Below, in pieces: positions 5,276-37,750 of a stretch of 64,000 bases of DNA. A model generated the notes under the pieces. The model was not told the DNA's origin and did no database searches. It saw only the letters and a program-made list of their open reading frames with translations. This DNA is from Escherichia coli (GTDB lineage: Bacteria > Pseudomonadota > Gammaproteobacteria > Enterobacterales > Enterobacteriaceae). Within the stretch, counting starts at the first letter, position 1; every line of letters begins with the position of its first letter. The translations under genes were made by a program, and so were the position numbers. The DNA is taken from the NCBI RefSeq assembly GCF_044324785.1, contig NZ_CP172127.1, one strand, 5' to 3'.

Positions 5276-6955
<1,680 letters not shown>

Positions 6956-11522: not shown

Positions 11523-11538
11523 AGTTTTACTCAGAGAT

Positions 11539-11644
11539 AAAAAAAACCCGGCATAGGGGACCGGGAAGAGGATAGTCTGCCGTCTCCAGACTAATAAACC
11601 GTTATAACACTCCCTGTTGGCACGGGAAACTTTGTGCTCTCAGT
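11539..11644 (-). ncRNA. gadY: GadY small RNA, antisense to the gadX 3' end
   Basis: Minus-strand sequence actgagagcacaaagtttcccgtgccaacaggg...cccggttttttt matches recalled GadY and ends in a hairpin plus U-run; ends approximate. Confidence 0.7.
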
Positions 11645-11890
11645 AAGTTAAATATAACTTTTACTGGAAATAAGATCAGCCATTTTTTTATAAACATAAG
11701 CTATACGCTGTGCGAAAATATATTCGTGCTGCATTTACTTATTATCAATTAACTGTTATGCAAAACTACTTTGTGGATAAATTTTGGTCCTACCAAATCT
11801 GGCAGTTTTTGCGCTAAGAAACAGTCTGGCATCATTTCATTAGTATACTGAAATTGAAATAATCGCAGTAATGAAATATAAGGGATAGTC

Positions 11891-12981: not shown

Positions 12982-15900
12982 TTACGCTTTTTTAAAGCGG
13001 GCAAAGAGATGTTCCACTACAACGAAAAAGACCGGAACGAAGTAAATGGCCAGCACTGTTGCGGCAAACATCCCGCCCATCACGCCGGTACCTACCGCGT
13101 TTTGCGCGCCAGAACCGGCACCATGACTGATAACCAGCGGCAGCACGCCGAGAATAAAGGCCAGAGAGGTCATCAGGATTGGGCGTAAACGCATTCGCGC
13201 CGCTTCGATGATCGCCTCTATCGGCGTTTTCCCTTCTTTCTGCATCATCTCAACGGCAAATTCGACAATCAGGATGGCGTTCTTGGCAGAAAGCCCGATG
13301 GTGGTCAGCAAACCAACCTGGAAGTAGACATCATTACTTAAGCCGCGTAGATCGGTGGCCAGTAATGCGCCAACGACGCCTAACGGTACAACCAACATCA
13401 CCGAGAACGGAATTGACCAGCTCTCATAAAGTGCGGCGAGGGCGAGGAACACCACGACCAGTGAAATGGCATACAGCGCAGGAGCCTGGTTTGAGGATAA
13501 CGCTTCCTGATACGACAGTCCGGTCCATGAGTAGCCGACGCCTGCCGGAAGTTTAGCGACCAGGTCTGCCATAAATTTCATAGCGTCACCGGTACTTTTC
13601 CCGGCCGCCGCTTCACCTAAAATCTCCATTGACGGGATGCCGTTGTAGCGTTCCAGTCGCGGTGAACCATAGGTCCATTCGGTAGACGAGTAGGCAGAAA
13701 GCGGTGCCATCGTGCCAGAGGCGTTGCGTACATACCATTGGTTGATGTTATCCGGCAACATACGGAACGGCGTGCCTGCCTGGACATACACTTTTTTCAC
13801 CCGCCCCTGGTTGAGGAAGTCGTTCACGTAGCTGCTGCCGAAGGCGGTGGAAATTGTCTGGTTGATATCAGACAGCGCCACGCCCATTGCCTCGGCTTTC
13901 GCGGCGTTGACGTTCACTTTGAACATCGGCGTATCTTCCAGGCCGTTCGGGCGTACCCCGGTGACTTGATTTGGTGATTGCGCTGCCAGTGATAATAGCT
14001 CGTTTCGCGCCTGGGTCAGTTTTTCGTGCCCCAGGTTACCGTTGTCCAGCAGTTCCATATCAAAACCTGACGCGGTACCCAGTTCAGCCACCGCGGGTAA
14101 ATTGAACGGGAAGACGACGGCTTTATTGATACTGCTTAACGCAATCATTGCCCGCTGAATGATCGCGGTAACCGAGTTTTCCTCACCGACACGTTCAGAC
14201 CACGGCTTGAGACTGATAAACGCCAGGCCGTTGTTTTGCCCCTGGCCGCTGAAGCCAAAGCCGCCAACGGTAAATACCGACTGGACATTATCTTTCTCTT
14301 TAGTCAGATAATAATCCGTCACCTGTTGCAGCACTTTCGTGGTGTTAACCATGGTGGCACCGGAAGGTAACTGCGCGGTGGTCATAAATACCCCCTGATC
14401 CTCTTCTGGTAAGAAAGAGGTCGGCGTACGCAGGAACAGCACCGCCATCCCAGCGCAAATCAGCAGGTAGACCACCATGTAGCGACCGGTACAACGCAAC
14501 AGCGAGCGGGTGCTGTCGGTATAGTGCTGAGTTGATTTTTCAAACAGCGTGTTGAAGCGTGCGAACAGGGCGTTAGGTTTGTGACCGCCTTCCGGCGCGG
14601 CTTTCAGAATGGTGGCGCACAGGGCAGGGGTCAGGCTCATTGCCACAAATACTGAAAGCAGCATGGAGGAGATTAGCGTGATGGAGAACTGGCGGTAGAT
14701 CTCCCCGGTCGCACCGCTCATAAAGGCCATCGGCATAAACACTGCGGAAAGAACAACGGCAATCCCGACCAGCGCACGTTGGATCTGCCCCATCGATTTA
14801 TGCGTCGCTTCCTTCGGCGGTAGCTTATCTTCTGCAATGACACGCTCGACGTTCTCCACCACCACGATGGCGTCATCCACCAGTAACCCTATCGCCAGCA
14901 CCATCCCGAACATAGTTAACGTGTTGATGGTGAAACCGACCGCCGACAAGATCGCAAACGTCCCGAGAATAACCACCGGTACGGCAATCGTCGGGATGAT
15001 TGTGGCACGGAAATTCTGCAAAAACAGATACATTACCAGGAAGACGAGGATGATAGCCTCAACCAGTGTTTTAAAAACTTCCTGAATAGAAATTTCGATA
15101 AACGGCGTGGTGTCGTAAGGATAAACCGTCTTCAGACTTGCGGGGAAATAGGCTGATAAACGGTTCAGCTCCTCTTTGACTGCCCGCGAGGTATCCAGGG
15201 CGTTCGCTCCGGCAGCCAGTTTGATGGCGATCCCGGCCGCAGGTTTGCCGTTATAGCGCGCCACGGTGGAATAATCTTCCGCCCCAAGTTCGACGCGGGC
15301 GACATCACGCAGCAGCACTTGCGAACCATCTTGCTGAACTTTCAACAGGATTTTGCCAAATTCTTCCGGCGTTTGCAGACGCGTCTGCACAATGATCGAG
15401 GCGTTCAGTTGCTGGTCTGCCGCCTGTGGCATGCCACCCAGTTGACCACCAGAAATCTGGTTGTTTTGTACCTTAATCTGGGAAATAACATCGGAAGGTA
15501 CCAGGTTATATTTATTGAGTTTTTGCGGGTCCAGCCAGATACGCATGGCGTACTCGGAACCAAAGAGCTGTACGCTACCAACGCCCGCGGTACGGCTTAG
15601 CGGGTCTTTAATATTAGACGCTACATAGTCCGCGATATCGTACTGGTTGAGGCTGCCGTTATCAGAAATAAACGCCGCTACCATCAGGATATTACTGCTC
15701 GATTTATCGACGCTGATCCCCTGCTGCTGCACCGCTTCAGGTAATGAAGGCATAGCGAGTTGCAGTTTATTTTGCACCTGAACCTGTGCGATATCAGGAG
15801 ATGTCCCAGTCTCGAAGGTCAGAGTGATAGAGGCATTGCCCGCCGCATCACTGGTTGAAGACATGTACATCAGGCCATCAAGCCCATTCATATTTTGCTC

Positions 15901-16095
15901 AATCACCTGAGTGACCGAGTCTTCTACCGTTTGCGCATCGGCACCTGGATAGGTAGCGCTGACGGTAATGGTCGGTGGCGCAATCTGCGGATACTGCGCA
16001 ACCGGTAAGTTCATGATCGCCAGACCACCTGCAAGCATCATAATAATGGCAAGTACCCAGGCAAAAACCGGGCGATCAATAAAATAGTTAGCCAT
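12982..16095 (-). CDS. mdtF: RND multidrug efflux pump inner-membrane subunit MdtF (1037 aa)
   Basis: Full-length AcrB-like RND ORF; immediately downstream of mdtE. Confidence 0.95.
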
Positions 16096-16119: not shown

Positions 16120-17277
16120 TTATTGTTTCGATTCGGTGCTGGCGTTTTCCTGGCTGGAGGAAATTGCTCGTGCTTTGATACCCGGACGAATGCGTTGCAA
16201 ACCGGAAACGATCACCCGATCGCCAGCCTGCAAGCCAGAGGTTACAACCCACTGGTCGCCGATGGCTTTGCTGGCTTCAATTTCGCGTAGCTGCACAACA
16301 TCGTCTTTATCCAGAATGAGCGCCGTTGCTTTACCCTGGGCGTTGTGGGTGACGCCTTCCTGCGGCACCAGTAATACATTCTGGCGGCTACCTTCATCCA
16401 CTAATGCCGTGACGTACATACCAGGCAGCAAGTCACCATTTGGGTTGGGGAAAATCGCCCGTAACGTCACGGAGCCCGTGGTTTCATCCACCGTCGGGTC
16501 GGAGAATTTCAGCGTGCCGGTCTGGCTGTAACGTTTACCATTTTCCAGATTGAGCTGTACTGGCGTACTGCCCTGAACCTGTTTGATTTGCCCACTGGCG
16601 ACCTCTTCTTTCATGCGTAAGAAATCTTGCACCGACTGCGTGAGATCGACATAAATCGGGTCCAGACGTTGTACGGTAACCAGCGAATCTGCCTGATTAG
16701 CGGTAACGAGTGCGCCGACGGTCACCGACGATTTCCCGCTGACGCCCGTAATCGGCGAGGTGACATTCGCGTATTGCAGATTGATCGTCGCCTGTTCAAC
16801 AGCCGCTTTGGCGACGGTGACATTGGCTTCTGCTTCATTCAACTGGGTGCGCGCGGTGTCGTAATCCTGACGGCTAACGTAGTTGGTCTTCAGCAACGAT
16901 GCCTGGCGGTTAAAGGTGATGCGGGCATTGCTGGCGGTAGAGAGCGCTTTCGCCAGCGTGCCTTTGGCGGAGTTCAGCTCGGCCTGTAAAGGTGCAGGAT
17001 CAATCTGATACAGCGAATCGCCCTGGTTCACTTTATCGCCTTCGATAAAGTTGCGTTTAATGATAATACCGCCCACCTGGGGACGTATCTCGGCAACTTC
17101 ATAAGGAACGGTTCTACCGGGCAATTCGCTCAATACATTGACCGAACCGGGGGAGAGTGTGACGACACCGACCTCAGGCGTCATGGCGGCGGCGTTTTCC
17201 GCCGATTTGTCATCGCAGGCGGTGAGCATCGCGCCGCAGAATAACAACGGTATTAACAGCTTTCTTCTTCTGTTCAT
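16120..17277 (-). CDS. mdtE: RND efflux membrane-fusion lipoprotein MdtE (385 aa)
   Basis: Signal peptide with lipobox (LTAC); AcrA-like periplasmic adaptor. Confidence 0.95.
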   Translation of the reverse strand: MNRRRKLLIPLLFCGAMLTACDDKSAENAAAMTPEVGVVTLSPGSVNVLSELPGRTVPYEVAEIRPQVGGIIIKRNFIEGDKVNQGDSLYQIDPAPLQAELNSAKGTLAKALSTASNARITFNRQASLLKTNYVSRQDYDTARTQLNEAEANVTVAKAAVEQATINLQYANVTSPITGVSGKSSVTVGALVTANQADSLVTVQRLDPIYVDLTQSVQDFLRMKEEVASGQIKQVQGSTPVQLNLENGKRYSQTGTLKFSDPTVDETTGSVTLRAIFPNPNGDLLPGMYVTALVDEGSRQNVLLVPQEGVTHNAQGKATALILDKDDVVQLREIEASKAIGDQWVVTSGLQAGDRVIVSGLQRIRPGIKARAISSSQENASTESKQ

Positions 17278-17615
17278 TTTAGTCCCTGAAAATTCTTGAG
17301 AAATAACGGTTCTTTAAATTGCGCGCGAGGAGAGATATGAGGGATTTACAGACCAGCGGCATAGTGGGGTTGTCAGCCAGTAAGGTGGGATACAGGCATA
17401 GTGATCGACATGGTGAGGTCAACGACAAAAAAAATGTTGCCGTTCTGCCAACAGTTCCTGCCAGCATTCGGGCAACGAAGGGTTCTACTGGTGGATACAC
17501 ATACCAGGGGAATAAAGTCGTTTTAACCTCTCCTTTAGTAATCACCGGGGGTAATGAAATCAGCATCTGCATCCCTCGTCATGCCAGCCATCAATTTCAG
17601 TTGCTTATGTCCTGA

Positions 17616-18143
17616 CTAAAAATAAGATGTGATACCCAGGGTGACGATGTCGCTCATACGTCTTAGTTTCAGCTTGTACATAATGTTGAATTTCTGAATC
17701 TTTAATGTTTGTTGCGAAATATTGAGCGTCGACGTGATATTGCTTTCATTTTTATTTTTCAGAATCAGTTGCATAATTTTGAACTGATTATGTGAAAAAC
17801 ATAATTGTGAATTCTTATGGGGCAAGTGTTTACCATAAGTAATCTCAAGAAGATTTTTGATACTTTCTTTGCGGCTAACAAAATAAATAGGCGCTTTAGC
17901 TTTTAGTTTACTGATGTGATAAGGTGCCAAAACAATAATTCTCTCGGCATCTAATTTCTCCAGAAATTTAATCGCTTCTTCATCAAGGATATGATTGTGA
18001 TAGGTATCAATGATAACCTTGAAGGGTTTATTGCCTACTTTTTTGATCTCTGACAGGGAATTGATTTTTATCATTTCGTGATTATCTTTCAACTGCCAAA
18101 AGCCCTGTAAAAGAAAAGAATCTTTCGTCATGAGAAAAATCAT
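17616..18143 (-). CDS. gadE: LuxR-family acid-resistance master regulator GadE (175 aa)
   Basis: Start at MIFLMTKDSF (ORF-track start 18221 trimmed); very AT-rich; preceded by a roughly 800-bp regulatory intergenic region. Confidence 0.9.
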   Translation of the reverse strand: MIFLMTKDSFLLQGFWQLKDNHEMIKINSLSEIKKVGNKPFKVIIDTYHNHILDEEAIKFLEKLDAERIIVLAPYHISKLKAKAPIYFVSRKESIKNLLEITYGKHLPHKNSQLCFSHNQFKIMQLILKNKNESNITSTLNISQQTLKIQKFNIMYKLKLRRMSDIVTLGITSYF

Positions 18144-18941
18144 AACTTGCTCCTTAGCCGTTATCGTTTCGAACATGTCATCCTTTTCATTATTTACATC
18201 CTTGTCAGAATCGTTGTTCAATATAGTAAACGCCTATAAGAACTTTGCCCTTCGTGAACTAATACGTCTATTAACACTAATCAATGCTTCAGATTTATCC
18301 ATCACGCACTCCATATATTGATCCTAAGTAAAATTCCTGGTTGTTATCAGTTTGTAAACAGCAAACAAAAACTTAACGTTTGCGGATTACTGCCCAAGAA
18401 TAAGTTATCAATAACCAGTTTGTGATCTCTGAAGAATATTACTAAAGTTAAAATGTAATCCGATTTAAATATCGAGTCTCCTTGTTTCGACTTAAGCTGG
18501 CAATTGGATTGCCAGCTTTCTTTTAACGCATTGAAATTACCTGAGTAAATAACTCATTCATGTCTTCAGGTTTTTATATAGCGTCTGGAGACACGGATAT
18601 TTATGCAATGTAATCAACGCCAGTTGCAAAAAAATGAACCCGGATTACTTATTTAACCGCCCATAGCATCAACGCTTACGGAACTCTTTGTTCACTTTCC
18701 CACAGCACTTTTAAAACATTAAACCTGACTACGGAAAATATCAGCCATGATAATGTTTGAAATGGCTAATTTGCCATGGAGTGAAAAAAATCATATGAAA
18801 TTCAGTAGGTTGAAATAATCATCAGCAGGTAATTATTTCAATGATAGTGCGCAATTGATCTATAACGCTGTGTAGCGGAGAGAGTATTAATCGGATCATA
18901 GTCACATCAAGTGACTATGATCCGGGTGATAACCGGGATAA

Positions 18942-19514
18942 TTATTGCTGCTTAACGAACAAACTGGCGAAGCTGAACAGGCTGGCGGCGCTAAATATCA
19001 GTTCAATACCCACCAGTGTGGAAACCAAAGTTACAGACACCATCGGCGTTGCACCAAGGAATATCCAGGCAATGACGATATCCAGCACACCAATAACGAG
19101 CTGTAGCCAGCTGCCTTTCATTGAACGCTGACGATACCAACTCATCAGGCGAATAACCCCTGCAACACAGAACAAACCGGCAATAAATGCCGCAATGGCA
19201 AAAATGCCCAGCTCCGGTGCGCGGATGAAGAAATAGCCGATCAATAAATAGGCGACTGCGACGAGGAAACCGGATAATACCGGCCAGAAATTATGACTGC
19301 GGTTGCTGAATAACCCGACAATAAGCGCAATGCCCGAGCAGATTAATAATGCACCCACTACTGTGCTTAAAATATCGCCAGAGACGAACGGGAAACTGAT
19401 ACACAGCAACCCGACGATAAACAGTAGCACGGCAATAAACTGGATTGCTCTGCGATGCTTTTTCAGCATCTCCAGATCAAACTTCAAAATTGTTGCCTTA
19501 TCTATATATAACAT
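18942..19514 (-). CDS. hdeD: Acid-resistance membrane protein HdeD (190 aa)
   Basis: Multi-TM ORF divergent from hdeAB. Confidence 0.9.
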   Translation of the reverse strand: MLYIDKATILKFDLEMLKKHRRAIQFIAVLLFIVGLLCISFPFVSGDILSTVVGALLICSGIALIVGLFSNRSHNFWPVLSGFLVAVAYLLIGYFFIRAPELGIFAIAAFIAGLFCVAGVIRLMSWYRQRSMKGSWLQLVIGVLDIVIAWIFLGATPMVSVTLVSTLVGIELIFSAASLFSFASLFVKQQ

Positions 19515-19768: not shown

Positions 19769-20101
19769 ATGAAAAAAGTATTAGGCGTTATTCTTGGTGG
19801 TCTGCTTCTTCTGCCAGTTGTGAGCAATGCAGCGGATGCGCAAAAAGCAGCTGATAACAAAAAACCGGTCAACTCCTGGACCTGTGAAGATTTCCTGGCT
19901 GTGGACGAATCCTTCCAGCCAACTGCAGTTGGTTTTGCTGAAGCGCTGAACAACAAAGATAAACCAGAAGATGCGGTTTTAGATGTTCAGGGTATTGCAA
20001 CCGTAACCCCAGCTATCGTTCAGGCTTGTACTCAGGATAAACAAGCCAACTTTAAAGATAAAGTTAAAGGCGAATGGGACAAAATTAAGAAAGATATGTA
20101 A
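19769..20101 (+). CDS. hdeA: Periplasmic acid-stress chaperone HdeA (110 aa)
   Basis: Signal peptide (…VVSNA/ADAQ) and recognised HdeA sequence. Confidence 0.95.
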   Translation: MKKVLGVILGGLLLLPVVSNAADAQKAADNKKPVNSWTCEDFLAVDESFQPTAVGFAEALNNKDKPEDAVLDVQGIATVTPAIVQACTQDKQANFKDKVKGEWDKIKKDM

Positions 20102-20216: not shown

Positions 20217-20543
20217 ATGAATATTTCATCTCTCCGTAAAGCGTTTATTTTTATGGGCGCTGTAGCGGCTTTGTCACTGGTGAACGCACAATCTGCGCTG
20301 GCAGCCAATGAATCCGCTAAAGATATGACCTGCCAGGAATTTATTGATCTGAATCCAAAAGCAATGACCCCGGTTGCATGGTGGATGCTGCATGAAGAGA
20401 CAGTATATAAAGGTGGCGATACTGTTACTTTAAATGAAACCGATCTCACTCAAATTCCTAAAGTGATCGAATACTGCAAGAAAAACCCGCAGAAAAATTT
20501 GTATACCTTCAAAAATCAAGCATCTAATGACTTGCCGAATTAA
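20217..20543 (+). CDS. hdeB: Periplasmic acid-stress chaperone HdeB (108 aa)
   Basis: Start at MNISSLRKAF (ORF-track start 20205 trimmed); signal peptide. Confidence 0.9.
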   Translation: MNISSLRKAFIFMGAVAALSLVNAQSALAANESAKDMTCQEFIDLNPKAMTPVAWWMLHEETVYKGGDTVTLNETDLTQIPKVIEYCKKNPQKNLYTFKNQASNDLPN

Positions 20544-20606: not shown

Positions 20607-21254
20607 ATGACAGCAGAATTTATTATACGTCTTATACTCGCAGCAATTGCCTGTGGCGCTATTGGCATGGAAAGGCAAATACGCGGCAAAGGAGCAGGGT
20701 TACGCACACATGTATTAATTGGCATGGGAAGCGCCCTGTTTATGATTGTTTCGAAATATGGTTTTGCTGACGTACTGTCTTTAGATCACGTCGGACTGGA
20801 CCCCAGCCGTATTGCTGCTCAGGTGGTGACGGGCGTCGGGTTTATCGGTGCAGGTAACATTCTCGTTCGTAACCAAAATATTGTAGGTCTGACGACGGCA
20901 GCGGATATCTGGGTGACCGCCGCTATAGGTATGGTTATTGGCAGTGGTATGTACGAACTGGGCATTTATGGTTCAGTGATGACCTTACTGGTGCTGGAAG
21001 TCTTCCATCAATTAACCTTCCGCCTGATGAACAAAAATTACCATTTACAGCTGACATTAGTGAACGGTAATACGGTATCAATGCTCGACTGGTTTAAGCA
21101 GCAAAAAATAAAAACTGATTTAGTTTCGTTGCAGGAAAATGAAGATCATGAAGTGGTCGCCATTGATATCCAGCTTCATGCCACGACGTCGATAGAAGAT
21201 CTGTTGCGATTATTAAAAGGTATGGCAGGGGTGAAAGGCGTTTCAATTAGCTAA
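20607..21254 (+). CDS. yhiD: MgtC-family inner membrane protein YhiD
   Basis: MgtC-like N-terminal TM region (start taken at MTAEFIIRL); conserved position after hdeB. Confidence 0.85.
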   Translation: MTAEFIIRLILAAIACGAIGMERQIRGKGAGLRTHVLIGMGSALFMIVSKYGFADVLSLDHVGLDPSRIAAQVVTGVGFIGAGNILVRNQNIVGLTTAADIWVTAAIGMVIGSGMYELGIYGSVMTLLVLEVFHQLTFRLMNKNYHLQLTLVNGNTVSMLDWFKQQKIKTDLVSLQENEDHEVVAIDIQLHATTSIEDLLRLLKGMAGVKGVSIS

Positions 21255-21274: not shown

Positions 21275-21307
21275 CAGGAGTACCGGAGCGGTACTCCTGT
21301 TGGTTTT
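21275..21307 (+). terminator. Hairpin terminator between convergent yhiD and chuV
   Basis: Stem caggagtacc / ggtactcctg followed by ttggtttt. Confidence 0.6.
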
Positions 21308-22076
21308 AATGATCGAGGACGATCAGTGGTGAATGGTTGGCAGGATCTTTAAGTACGGTAATATCCGCGCCGTAGAGCATTGTCAGTGCCTGCTGTGTCA
21401 ATACATCCTGCGGTTTACCATTTGCGATAACCTTTCCTTTTTGCATTAATACAATACGGTCTGCATAACGTGCGGCAAGATTTAGATCGTGCAATACGCA
21501 GCAAACATTGAATTGCCGTTCGTGAACTAACTGGCGTAATAAACGGAACAAGTGCTGCTGATGGTGAATATCCAGCGCCGAAGTTGGTTCATCAAGAAAT
21601 AACCATTTCGGTGAGGGAGTAGGTTCCCAGAGTTGCACCAGCAGGCGCGCTAATTGCACGCGCTGTTGTTCACCACCGGATAATTGCCGATAGTCGCGGT
21701 TTGCTAACGCCTGACAGTCACATAACGCCATTATTTGTGCTGTTTCATTATCCTTATTACCAGTGCGATGCGGATGCCGCCCCATCTGGATAACTTCTTG
21801 TACGCTGAATGGAAACGCCATGTGGCTATTTTGACGCATCACGGCCCGGTGTTTCGCCAGTTCAGTAATCGACCATTTATTTAATGGCTTATTAAACAAC
21901 CGACATTCGCCGCTATCAGGTTGAAGATAGCCGGTTAACTGGCGAAGCAGCGTAGATTTTCCCGCACCATTAGGGCCGAGAATGGCAACAATTTCCCCAC
22001 CGGGAAAAGTCAGCGAGACATTATCAGTCAGGCGTCGCCCATGAAGGCTATAAACCAGATTCTGGGCGCTGATCAT
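21306..22076 (-). CDS. chuV: Hemin ABC transporter ATP-binding protein ChuV/HmuV (256 aa)
   Basis: Walker [13 protein letters not shown] signature LSGGEQQR, Walker B LFLDEP; start codon overlaps the chuU stop (ATGA) at 22073-22076. Confidence 0.9.
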
Positions 22077-23065
22077 GTGATCCTCCGGTTGCGCAGAATC
22101 AACCACATAAAATAAGGACCACCAAGCAGGCTGGTTAATAATCCCACGGGCATTTCTGCTGGCTGTACCAGCGTGCGGGCAAGCGTGTCTGCCATCAGCA
22201 ATAAACAGGCTCCGGCGAGGGCGGAGCAAGGGATTAGCCAGCGGTGATTTGCTCCGGTAGTCATGCGAATCAGATGCGGGATCACCAGGCCAATAAAGCC
22301 GATAATGCCGCTTACCGATACGGCAGCACCAACGAGCAGTGAGCTCACTAACAGTAATTGCTGGCGTTTACGCTTAACGTTCACGCCGAGGTAGTGGGCT
22401 TCTTCATCACCGAGCTGCAGTAAATTCAGCGTTCCGGCGAGACAAGTTGTTGCGATAATGGCCGGTAGGATGAATGAACTGGCAACCAATAACGTCGGCC
22501 ATTGCGCCTGTCCAAGATTGCCCATCATCCACAATGTGAGTTGTCGTAGCTGCTGCTCATCGCCGATATAGCTCAGGATGCCGATCGCTGCGCCGCACAG
22601 GGCATTGATGGCGATACCAGCGAGTAATAATTGCATCATGCTGCCATCGCGATGGCGCTGCGTGATGAGAAAAATGATGGTGCAGACCACTAAACTTCCG
22701 ACAATGGCAAACACCATTTGCTCATAGAGCACTAGCACCACTGGGAAGGAGAAGGGCAGCACAATAGCAACGCCAACCATTAATGCAGAACCGCTACTGA
22801 CGCCAAGTAATCCTGGGTCAGCCATTGGGTTGCGAAAAAGCCCCTGCATAATTACCCCGGCGGTTGCCAACGCTGCACCTACCAGCACCGCCAGCAAAAC
22901 CCGTGGTAGACGAATATTGAGCCAGATATCGCGGTATTCCTCATCAAAAAGGGCATCAAAACTGATCCTTAACGCTCCCTGACTGGCACCGAACAGCACC
23001 AGAGCGAGCAATAATAGTGATAGCCTCATAAAGACCCTGGCGGAAGAGAGTGAATCCTTGAGCAC
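22073..23065 (-). CDS. chuU: Hemin ABC transporter permease ChuU (FecCD family)
   Basis: Multi-TM FecCD/BtuC-like permease upstream of the ATPase; exact start uncertain. Confidence 0.9.
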
Positions 23066-23113
23066 GCAAAACTCCGTTACGACATTACGGCGCGGACATG
23101 CCGCGCCGGGGGA

Positions 23114-23737
23114 TCACGCCGGTTTCAGGTCCGGTTCAATCAGACTGTAGACCTGCTGGTTAAGTGCTGGCGCATTTGCCAGTTCATGGATATGTGCGGC
23201 GACATCGGTACGGTTAACAAAACCATGACACTCCTGATTTTGTATCCGTTGTGCTTTGCCCGTTGCCGCCCCATCAAGCAGACCGCCAGGGCGGAGAATG
23301 GCGTAATCAAGCTGGCTGGTTTGCAACCAGCTTTCCGCCAGCGTTTTTTCCCGTACCGCCTGACCAAACGCAGCCTTTGCTCGCTCCGATAAAAACGGCC
23401 AGCTATCGCCGCATCCCAAAGAGGTCACCAGAATCATGCGACTGATGCCGGCCTTTTCGGCCTCATCAATCACTGTTCTGTGCGCCAGATAATCCTGAGC
23501 TCCTCCCATTGTTGAGATGATAAGCGCATCCGGGCCAGCTGCGCGGCAAGCAGCCGCAACTACGCTGGCATCACAGGCGTCGCCTGTAAAAACCTGTACG
23601 CCTTGTTGCGCCAGTTTCGTGGCGGCATCGGCATGACGAACGACAGCAACGACCGGACGTTGCTCTGCCAGCGCCAGTTCAAGCGTTCTGGCACCCACAC
23701 CTTTTCCGCCTGCGCCAAAGAGTAGCCACGGCGTCAT
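23114..23737 (-). CDS. chuY: ChuY (heme-degradation-associated NAD(P)-binding reductase)
   Basis: 207-aa ORF in the chuTWXYUV operon position; start overlaps the chuX stop by 1 nt (TGATG). Confidence 0.8.
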   Translation of the reverse strand: MTPWLLFGAGGKGVGARTLELALAEQRPVVAVVRHADAATKLAQQGVQVFTGDACDASVVAAACRAAGPDALIISTMGGAQDYLAHRTVIDEAEKAGISRMILVTSLGCGDSWPFLSERAKAAFGQAVREKTLAESWLQTSQLDYAILRPGGLLDGAATGKAQRIQNQECHGFVNRTDVAAHIHELANAPALNQQVYSLIEPDLKPA

Positions 23738-37281: not shown

Positions 37282-37433
37282 ATTGCGCTCCTGATTGTTG
37301 CAGGTAGTGTCTCTCTTCGAAGCGGATAAGTCAAAAACATATATGGTTTAACGAATGTGTATGTGCAGAGGAAGGTAATAGGTGTGAATTTTGAGTTGGC
37401 TATTCATTTGAAAGGAGGTCTGAATCAGGACGT

Positions 37434-37515
37434 AAAAAAACCGACTTTGCGTCGGTTTTTTACTTCCCAGCCCTGAGTTGGTGGCTCTGGCTGGAGTGAG
37501 AGAGCTCTTATCTAA
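37434..37515 (-). ncRNA. agrA: agr-type antisense sRNA, copy 1 (agrA-like)
   Basis: Minus-strand promoter (-35 TTGCAA, 17-bp spacer, -10 TAGTAT) and hairpin plus U-run terminator; about 30 nt of the RNA is complementary to the dinQ 5' region; ends approximate. Confidence 0.55.
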
Positions 37516-37667
37516 CAGCTCAATACTATTAGCCAGTGGCTAACATTGCAAGAATTAGCGATTTCTTCAGCTGGCGAAGGGACAGTTTGCTATACATGTT
37601 GGTGAAAGAGGATTTATATACTTTCATCGGGTCGCTGCCGTACCAAGCCTTGTCCGAATCCGGACGT

Positions 37668-37750
37668 AAAAAAACCGACTTCGCGTCGGTTTTTTACTTT
37701 CCAGCCCTGAGTTGGTGGCTCTGGTTGGAGTGAGAATGCCATCATCTAAC
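37668..37750 (-). ncRNA. agrB: agr-type antisense sRNA, copy 2 (agrB-like)
   Basis: Tandem duplicate of copy 1 with its own promoter (-35 TTGCAA, -10 TAGCAT) and identical hairpin terminator; ends approximate. Confidence 0.55.

Follow-up and report, generated by a model that had tools for sequence, protein, structure and literature searches.

Three conserved blocks and the antisense RNA ArrS in the 798-bp spacer that very probably controls the gadE-mdtEF operon of an Escherichia coli strain

The DNA analysed here, referred to throughout as the window, is a stretch of 64,000 nucleotides from an Escherichia coli genome (contig NZ_CP172127.1). It carries the acid fitness island of E. coli in reverse orientation, with the gene order mdtF-mdtE-gadE-spacer-hdeD-hdeAB-yhiD (Table 1). 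Using an ORF map together with tblastn, we found hdeD and gadE on the same strand, mdtEF after gadE, and the divergent hdeAB-yhiD genes before hdeD. The GadE protein matches K-12 b3512 at all 175 aa (100% identity), and HdeD is 100% identical to its K-12 counterpart, which together with the coordinates in Table 1 establishes the identity of the locus directly. Our subject is the DNA between these two genes, comprising all bases between the gadE ATG (18143, minus strand) and the hdeD stop codon (18942-18944, minus strand). A sequence-only reading of the window had placed about 800 bp of non-coding DNA here, and its boundaries proved exact, giving a spacer of 798 bp. Below, positions upstream of gadE are numbered from its start codon, such that position -n corresponds to window position 18143 + n.

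Table 1. Genes, transcript ends and sequence features at the hdeD-gadE locus, in window coordinates
Feature	Position	Strand	Basis and remarks
mdtF	12982-16095	(-)	
mdtE	16120-17277	(-)	
gadE	17616-18143	(-)	
hdeD-gadE intergenic spacer, gadE control region	18144-18941	(-), reads towards gadE	ORF map and K-12 alignment
Block C (-200 to -1)	18144-18343	(-)	Alignment; P1 and upstream activator region, 124-nt T1 leader, ribosome-binding site
gadE Shine-Dalgarno AAGGAG (-12 to -7)	18150-18155	(-)	Read from sequence; invariant in 10/10 aligned sequences
5' end "T" (-21)	18164	(-)	Transferred, PMC3708157
Two AAGGATG repeats (-64 to -54, -46 to -36)	18179-18207	(-)	Direct repeat; candidate CsrA sites
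T1 start site of P1 (-124)	18267	(-)	Transferred, PMC3708157; 124-nt leader
Block B (-385 to -259)	18402-18528	.	Alignment; arrS, arrS promoter, T2 ends
arrS promoter candidate	18420-18448	(+)	-35 TTGTGA, 17-bp spacer, -10 TAAAGT; +1 G at 18455
arrS, 70-nt cis-antisense sRNA	18455-18524	(+)	K-12 ncRNA b4704, 3657985-3658054
T2 5' ends (-317, -324)	18460-18467	(-)	Transferred, PMC3708157; leader ~320 nt
ArrS intrinsic terminator	18494-18524	(+)	Perfect 11-bp stem, 3-nt loop, then TCTTTT
E. coli-only segment of T3 leader, ~95 bp (~-480 to -386)	18529-18623	.	Alignment
Block A (-640 to -545)	18688-18783	(-)	Alignment; distal P3 and first ~20 nt of T3 transcript
T3 start site of P3 (-566)	18709	(-)	Transferred, PMC3708157; 566-nt leader
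YdeO-box pair TGAAAT-N18-ATTTCA	18811-18840	.	Inverted repeat; -131 to -102 relative to T3
14-bp hairpin, 18-50 nt past hdeD stop codon	18892-18924	(-)	Fold and cross-species pairing; no U-tract
hdeD	18942-19514	(-)	
hdeA	19769-20101	(+)	
hdeB	20217-20543	(+)	K-12's annotated start; longest ORF from 20205
yhiD	20607-21254	(+)	K-12's annotated start; longest ORF from 20595

The length of the spacer stands out within its own neighborhood. Intergenic gaps were ranked in strain 19KM1831, the closest annotated genome, where over the same 64 kb the 798-bp spacer tops a list of ~50 gaps, followed by gaps of 683, 580, 541 and 518 bp. Its composition is less distinctive. The spacer was said to be very AT-rich, and its 35.8% GC against 48.0% for the whole window bears this out, however, the property is not peculiar to it: a low-GC tract (31-36% GC) spans ~17600-18900 and takes in the gadE coding sequence (31-34% GC), and other gaps of the island are similar, for example hdeA-hdeD at 33% GC. 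An H-NS-type compositional signal is therefore not restricted to non-coding DNA at this locus. The ORF map of the gap contains no ORF longer than 63 aa, the ORFs in the spacer gave zero matches to Pfam and NCBIfam, and the gap is free of annotated CDSs both in K-12 and in PGAP output.

Several other features of the window were recorded along the way. In the gadE-mdtE spacer, an Rfam ES205 match (105 bits) at 17427-17498 on the minus strand overlaps the K-12 sRNA GadF (b4718), which is derived from the gadE 3' UTR. Antisense to GadF runs a 98-aa ORF (17319-17615, plus strand), whose PGAP equivalent in 19KM1831 is the "hypothetical protein" WP_001205327.1; this ORF is probably a spurious call over the sRNA locus. 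Between yhiD and dctR, at ~21300-30260, lies the chu/shu heme-uptake locus, as in strain 19KM1831, with the Rfam shuA/chuA 5' UTR thermoregulator at 27170-27201 on the plus strand. This marks the source of the window as a chu-positive E. coli and not K-12. Two AgrB-family antisense RNAs on the minus strand (37432-37515 and 37666-37749) adjoin dinQ, in a gap that measures ~1.1 kb by a crude ORF call and 541 bp between annotated CDSs in 19KM1831.

Aligned from end to end, the spacer is colinear with K-12 MG1655 3657568-3658365, with 97.6% identity, 19 substitutions and no indels. It shares its flanking genes and its 798-bp length with the K-12 gadE sensory integration region, which was reportedly the subject of Ma et al. 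2004 and Sayed & Foster 2009. By this alignment, the spacer is the already known gadE "798-bp/750-bp sensory integration region" detailed in earlier K-12 work. The sequence-only reading had proposed alignment to the K-12 arrS and gadE leader annotations as a check, and the comparison both showed this colinearity and located arrS (b4704). Ten of the 19 substitutions fall in the variable distal 165 bp, and 13 lie outside the conserved blocks described below. Near the start sites there is just one, 19 nt upstream of T1, with the surroundings of T1 and T3 otherwise matching, and the last 30 nt of the gadE leader, including the ribosome-binding site, are identical to K-12. Two of the differences from K-12 lie close to the gene, where a substitution at -31 restores an in-frame ATG and another at -64 touches the first AAGGATG motif. 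The reading of the spacer as a multi-promoter control region of gadE agrees with what has been published for the colinear K-12 sequence, as Deng et al. 2013 described the hdeD-gadE spacer as unusually long and multi-promoter, and subject to more than ten regulators (PMC3708157).

The spacer is nearly universal in the species: of 5426 complete E. coli genomes, 5413 carry it, with identities of 90-99%. Only two of the 5426 reach 99%, and the genome with the best spacer match, NZ_CP151026.1, is just 98.2% identical to the window over 60 kb, suggesting that complete E. coli genomes cover the source lineage only poorly. Acid-fitness-island DNA of E. coli also turned up in two contigs filed under other organisms, NZ_JAUFQN010000010.1 (Flavobacterium paronense) and NZ_JARVKW010000110.1 (Streptomyces sp. 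DH24), which are almost certainly assembly contamination. The first of these contains 1-nt indels scattered along it, of the sort that long-read errors produce, and they bring its apparent GadE identity down to 73%.

The published gadE 5' ends lie at -21, -124 (T1), -324/-317 (T2) and -566 (T3) (PMC3708157), and we transferred them to the window by the conversion given above. The end at -21 is, in the opinion of Deng et al., perhaps a degradation product (PMC3708157). In K-12, P3 accounts for the bulk of anaerobic activity, with truncations lacking it leaving about one third, while P2/P4 alone have almost zero activity in lacZ fusions under anaerobic conditions; phosphorylated ArcA (ArcA-P) binds P1 and P3 by EMSA, and GadE autoactivates P1 through a GAD box (PMC3708157). 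Upstream of the T3 start, candidate P3 hexamers can be proposed from the letters, a -35 CTGATA at 18739-18744 and a -10 TAATGT at 18716-18721. The P3 core promoter is flanked by a 12-nt inverted repeat, TTTAAAACATTA / TAATGTTTGAAA, at 18710-18762, which is kept in all species aligned. A generic sigma-70 scan of the spacer returned 7 sites against 8.3 expected, with none at the published P1-P3 positions, and consensus scanning is of no use for promoters that, like these, depend on activators and on sigma-S.

The sole K-12-annotated feature within the spacer is arrS, on the strand opposite gadE. It had been suggested from the sequence that the region may hold cis-antisense or leader RNAs, and both could be placed: arrS has exact coordinates, and the published starts give leaders of 566, ~320 and 124 nt. 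Because Rfam holds no matching family (Rfam 15 gave zero matches in the spacer even at E <= 1), ArrS was placed by way of the K-12 annotation. The window copy has 0 differences from b4704, with all 70 nt, the position, the strand and the terminator identical, and it is complementary to -381 to -312 of the long gadE leader. ArrS is reportedly known as a cis-antisense sRNA of the gadE T3 leader from the work of Aiso et al. in 2011 and 2014. Its predicted fold is stable (-20.2 kcal/mol, z = -3.84), and the terminator was recovered independently by a terminator scan, an inverted-repeat search and the fold, with a stem that contains GC and a UCUUUU U-tail, a 3' end of the type common in Hfq-binding sRNAs; the segment just downstream of arrS has a weak fold (z = -2.2). 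The hexamers of the arrS promoter candidate were read from the sequence and fall inside the second of the conserved blocks, block B.

The T2 5' ends lie inside the ArrS-complementary interval, a position that would fit processing of an ArrS-T3 duplex and does not prove it. Previous work in K-12 reported that ArrS is complementary to the longest gadE leader, that it is induced by sigma-S and GadE, and that its overexpression raises acid survival (PMC6755755). ArrS also binds Hfq and acts in trans, activating cfa by base pairing (PMC6755755, PMC5145812). This raises the alternative that ArrS is mainly trans-acting, with cfa as an example of a target and the overlap with the gadE leader incidental, and that T2 arises at a genuine P2 promoter and not through cleavage guided by ArrS. 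P2 has indeed been handled as a promoter region in truncation studies, however, P2/P4 alone were nearly inactive in the anaerobic lacZ fusions (PMC3708157). The perfect complementarity to the leader and the T2 ends within the duplex also argue against an incidental overlap, as does the RNase III cleavage site mapped in ArrS, which its authors read as agreeing with cis regulation of gadE mRNA (PMC6212723). We consider the alternative unlikely, though it deserves to be taken seriously, and the cis and trans roles of ArrS are compatible, since both can be true.

A similar arrangement exists elsewhere in the same island, where GadY (11534-11647, minus strand) lies between gadX and gadW. Like ArrS, GadY is a cis-antisense sRNA opposite the mRNA of an acid regulator; it is sigma-S-dependent, guides processing that raises expression of the regulator, and has an Hfq-mediated role in trans. 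Unlike ArrS, it overlaps the gadX 3' UTR and the gadX-gadW junction as opposed to a 5' leader, and the two sequences are unrelated.

To compare the spacer across Escherichia, gadE loci were taken from one genome per species and the spacers aligned (10 sequences). The closer relatives have spacers of 787-798 bp, and the four distant genomes have spacers of 745 bp (E. albertii), 721 bp (E. whittamii), 720 bp (Escherichia sp. E1V33) and 732 bp (strain E69), at 33-36% GC, so that the genus has kept both the length and the composition of the spacer. As a neutral yardstick we used the 4-fold degenerate sites of gadE and hdeD, which in the four distant genomes are 46-65% identical to the window. Three blocks rise well above this level. 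In block A the core bins (-618 to -559) are 95-97% identical to the four distant species, the 30-nt bins of block B are 85-99% identical, and those of block C 82-100%, with the bin around T1 (-138 to -109) 100% conserved. We conclude from the aligned sequences that blocks A, B and C are under purifying selection, as their conservation far beyond synonymous sites indicates. Two derived substitutions occur in block C, one at -64 seen only in the window and one at -143 that, among the aligned sequences, is common to 19KM1831 alone. Between and beyond the blocks, ~240 bp (-798 to -649 and -558 to -469) drift at a near-neutral rate, with identities of 0.38-0.68.

A further segment of the T3 leader, 18529-18623, is present in E. 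coli and absent from E. albertii, E. whittamii, Escherichia sp. E1V33 and strain E69. On the plus strand it adjoins the arrS terminator downstream. We looked at whether it might be a miniature mobile element and rejected this, as it is single-copy, occurring at 5416 places in 5411 genomes.

The last stretch of the leader, within block C, combines the gadE ribosome-binding site with two AAGGATG repeats, which resemble the CsrA SELEX consensus, RUACARGGAUGU. These repeats, in the last 65 nt of the leader, are likely to be CsrA contacts, to judge from their sequence. The apparent KD of CsrA for the gadE leader is 138 nM (PMC11210196). The minimum-energy structure of the T1 leader occludes the ribosome-binding site, with a z of only -1.5. 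In the same stretch, the window has an in-frame ATG at -33 (18174-18176, minus strand), 11 codons upstream of the annotated gadE start and with AAGGA ahead of it. It is created by a G at -31, where K-12 has ATA in place of the ATG. Of 5411 complete E. coli genomes, 3887 (72%) have exactly the allele of the window over -60 to -1, and the -33 ATG also occurs in the other Escherichia species, E. albertii and E. whittamii among them. It is conceivable, if improbable, that strains with this ATG make an N-terminally extended GadE, or that translation is controlled at this start, which overlaps the CsrA-like motifs.

Could coding sequence account for the length of the spacer, in the form of hidden small protein genes or an earlier gadE start? 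There are plus-strand ORFs of 63, 35 and 30 aa, an in-frame, TTG-started extension of gadE from 18221, and the -33 ATG behind AAGGA in the allele carried by 72% of E. coli genomes. Set against these, a 1-nt insertion near -68 in all four distant species would throw the 63-aa antisense ORF as well as the TTG extension out of frame, and the ORFs have neither a Pfam or NCBIfam match nor an annotated counterpart in K-12 or PGAP. The annotated gadE ATG, for its part, has a perfect AAGGAG 6 nt upstream, and a short ORF, even if real, cannot explain 798 bp. The ORF map, the family searches and the cross-species frameshift exclude a hidden gene in the spacer for practical purposes, and we regard coding sequence as a highly improbable explanation overall. 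The least credible explanation, that only the proximal ~200 bp function and the distal ~600 bp are neutral AT-rich filler from horizontal acquisition of the island, can draw on the ~240 near-neutral bp, the ~95 bp dispensable in other species and the 13 of 19 K-12 substitutions that fall outside the conserved blocks, but it conflicts with blocks A and B being far more conserved than synonymous sites, with the drop to about one third of activity on removal of P3 (PMC3708157), with arrS being an expressed, Hfq-associated sRNA (PMC5145812, PMC11230228), with YdeO binding at gadEp2p3 by ChIP and EMSA (PMC4222967), and with the altered gadE induction or acid survival already reported for equivalent K-12 deletion constructs.

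Motif searches contributed unevenly to the picture of silencing and activation. The high-affinity motif of H-NS, TCGATAAATT, had 100 matches with <=2 mismatches in the window against 83 expected, four weak ones lying in the spacer; the scan showed no enrichment and was uninformative. The GAD-box consensus TTAGGATTTTGTTATTTAAA reached at best <=13/20 in the spacer, which is chance level (~4 matches per shuffle); partial matches of 12/20 at -233 to -214 and 11/20 at -184 to -165 are also at chance level, and the published GAD box is not locatable in the spacer by this consensus alone. The hexamers of the YdeO box fared better, with five in the spacer against 0.98 expected (P ~0.002). A YdeO box consists of inverted ATTTCA hexamers in the range -131 to -1, and YdeO binds gadEp2p3 (PMC4222967); the pair in the spacer sits at the upstream limit of this reported range. 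As for H-NS, in K-12 an hns deletion raises PgadE-lacZ >10-fold (PMC3708157), and IPOD-HR found H-NS/StpA-dependent occupancy (an EPOD) across the stretch hdeAB-hdeD-arrS-gadE, where gadEp and arrSp show transcription-factor peaks (PMC11230228). Silencing of the spacer by H-NS would be compatible with its 35.8% GC, a view that rests on this K-12 literature and on AT-richness.

At the far end of the spacer, the hairpin past the hdeD stop codon has a very stable fold (-26.1 kcal/mol, z = -5.98), and 3 of its 13 consensus pairs are maintained through compensatory changes across Escherichia species. It is probably a 3'-end stabiliser or terminator of hdeD. Since it has no U-tract, a 3'-end stabiliser or Rho-associated end would be more likely than a classic intrinsic terminator. 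A more remote possibility is that it marks a processed 3' end not recognised so far, or that it insulates P3 against read-through from hdeD.

Taken together, we are close to certain that the 798 bp are a cis-regulatory hub of the gadE-mdtEF operon, silenced, multi-promoter and equipped with an ArrS feed-forward. The steps of binding, transcription and processing that follow are carried over from the K-12 literature by way of the 97.6% sequence identity. In uninduced cells, H-NS/StpA would coat and silence the AT-rich tract. The distal P3 would then give rise to an mRNA with a 566-nt leader, and is expected to integrate YdeO/EvgA (acid), GadX/GadW with sigma-S (stationary phase) and ArcA (anaerobiosis). 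The proximal P1 would serve autoactivation by GadE. GadE and sigma-S would also induce ArrS from the opposite strand, where the perfect pairing with -381 to -312 of the long leader is predicted to promote RNase III-dependent conversion of T3 mRNA to a shorter mRNA, making the ArrS-gadE circuit a positive feed-forward loop. In the last ~65 nt of the leader, CsrA would bind GGA motifs and lower expression.

Control regions of this general kind occur elsewhere in E. coli. Those of csgD, rpoS and flhDC are likewise long and H-NS-silenced, with several hundred bp, many inputs, and a long 5' UTR that acts as a post-transcriptional hub. They are not known to share sequence with the gadE spacer, and the gadE case differs from them in having an sRNA encoded within the leader on the opposite strand.

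Since K-12 studies have described both the region and ArrS over the past 15-20 years, our re-analysis mostly confirms a real feature that had been read correctly from the sequence. What is new is the cross-species footprint, in which ~420 of the 798 bp are constrained and ~95 bp are confined to E. coli; the exact coordinates of ArrS and of the published start sites in this strain are also added. K-12 proves to be atypical at leader position -31, and if the -33 ATG does act as an upstream gadE start, work in K-12 would have missed it, since K-12, on which most gadE studies have been done, carries ATA. GadE, the master regulator of acid resistance in E. coli, governs the glutamate-dependent form of it and, via mdtEF, drug efflux. 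As GadE controls acid resistance, its control region is decisive for whether E. coli comes through the stomach alive.
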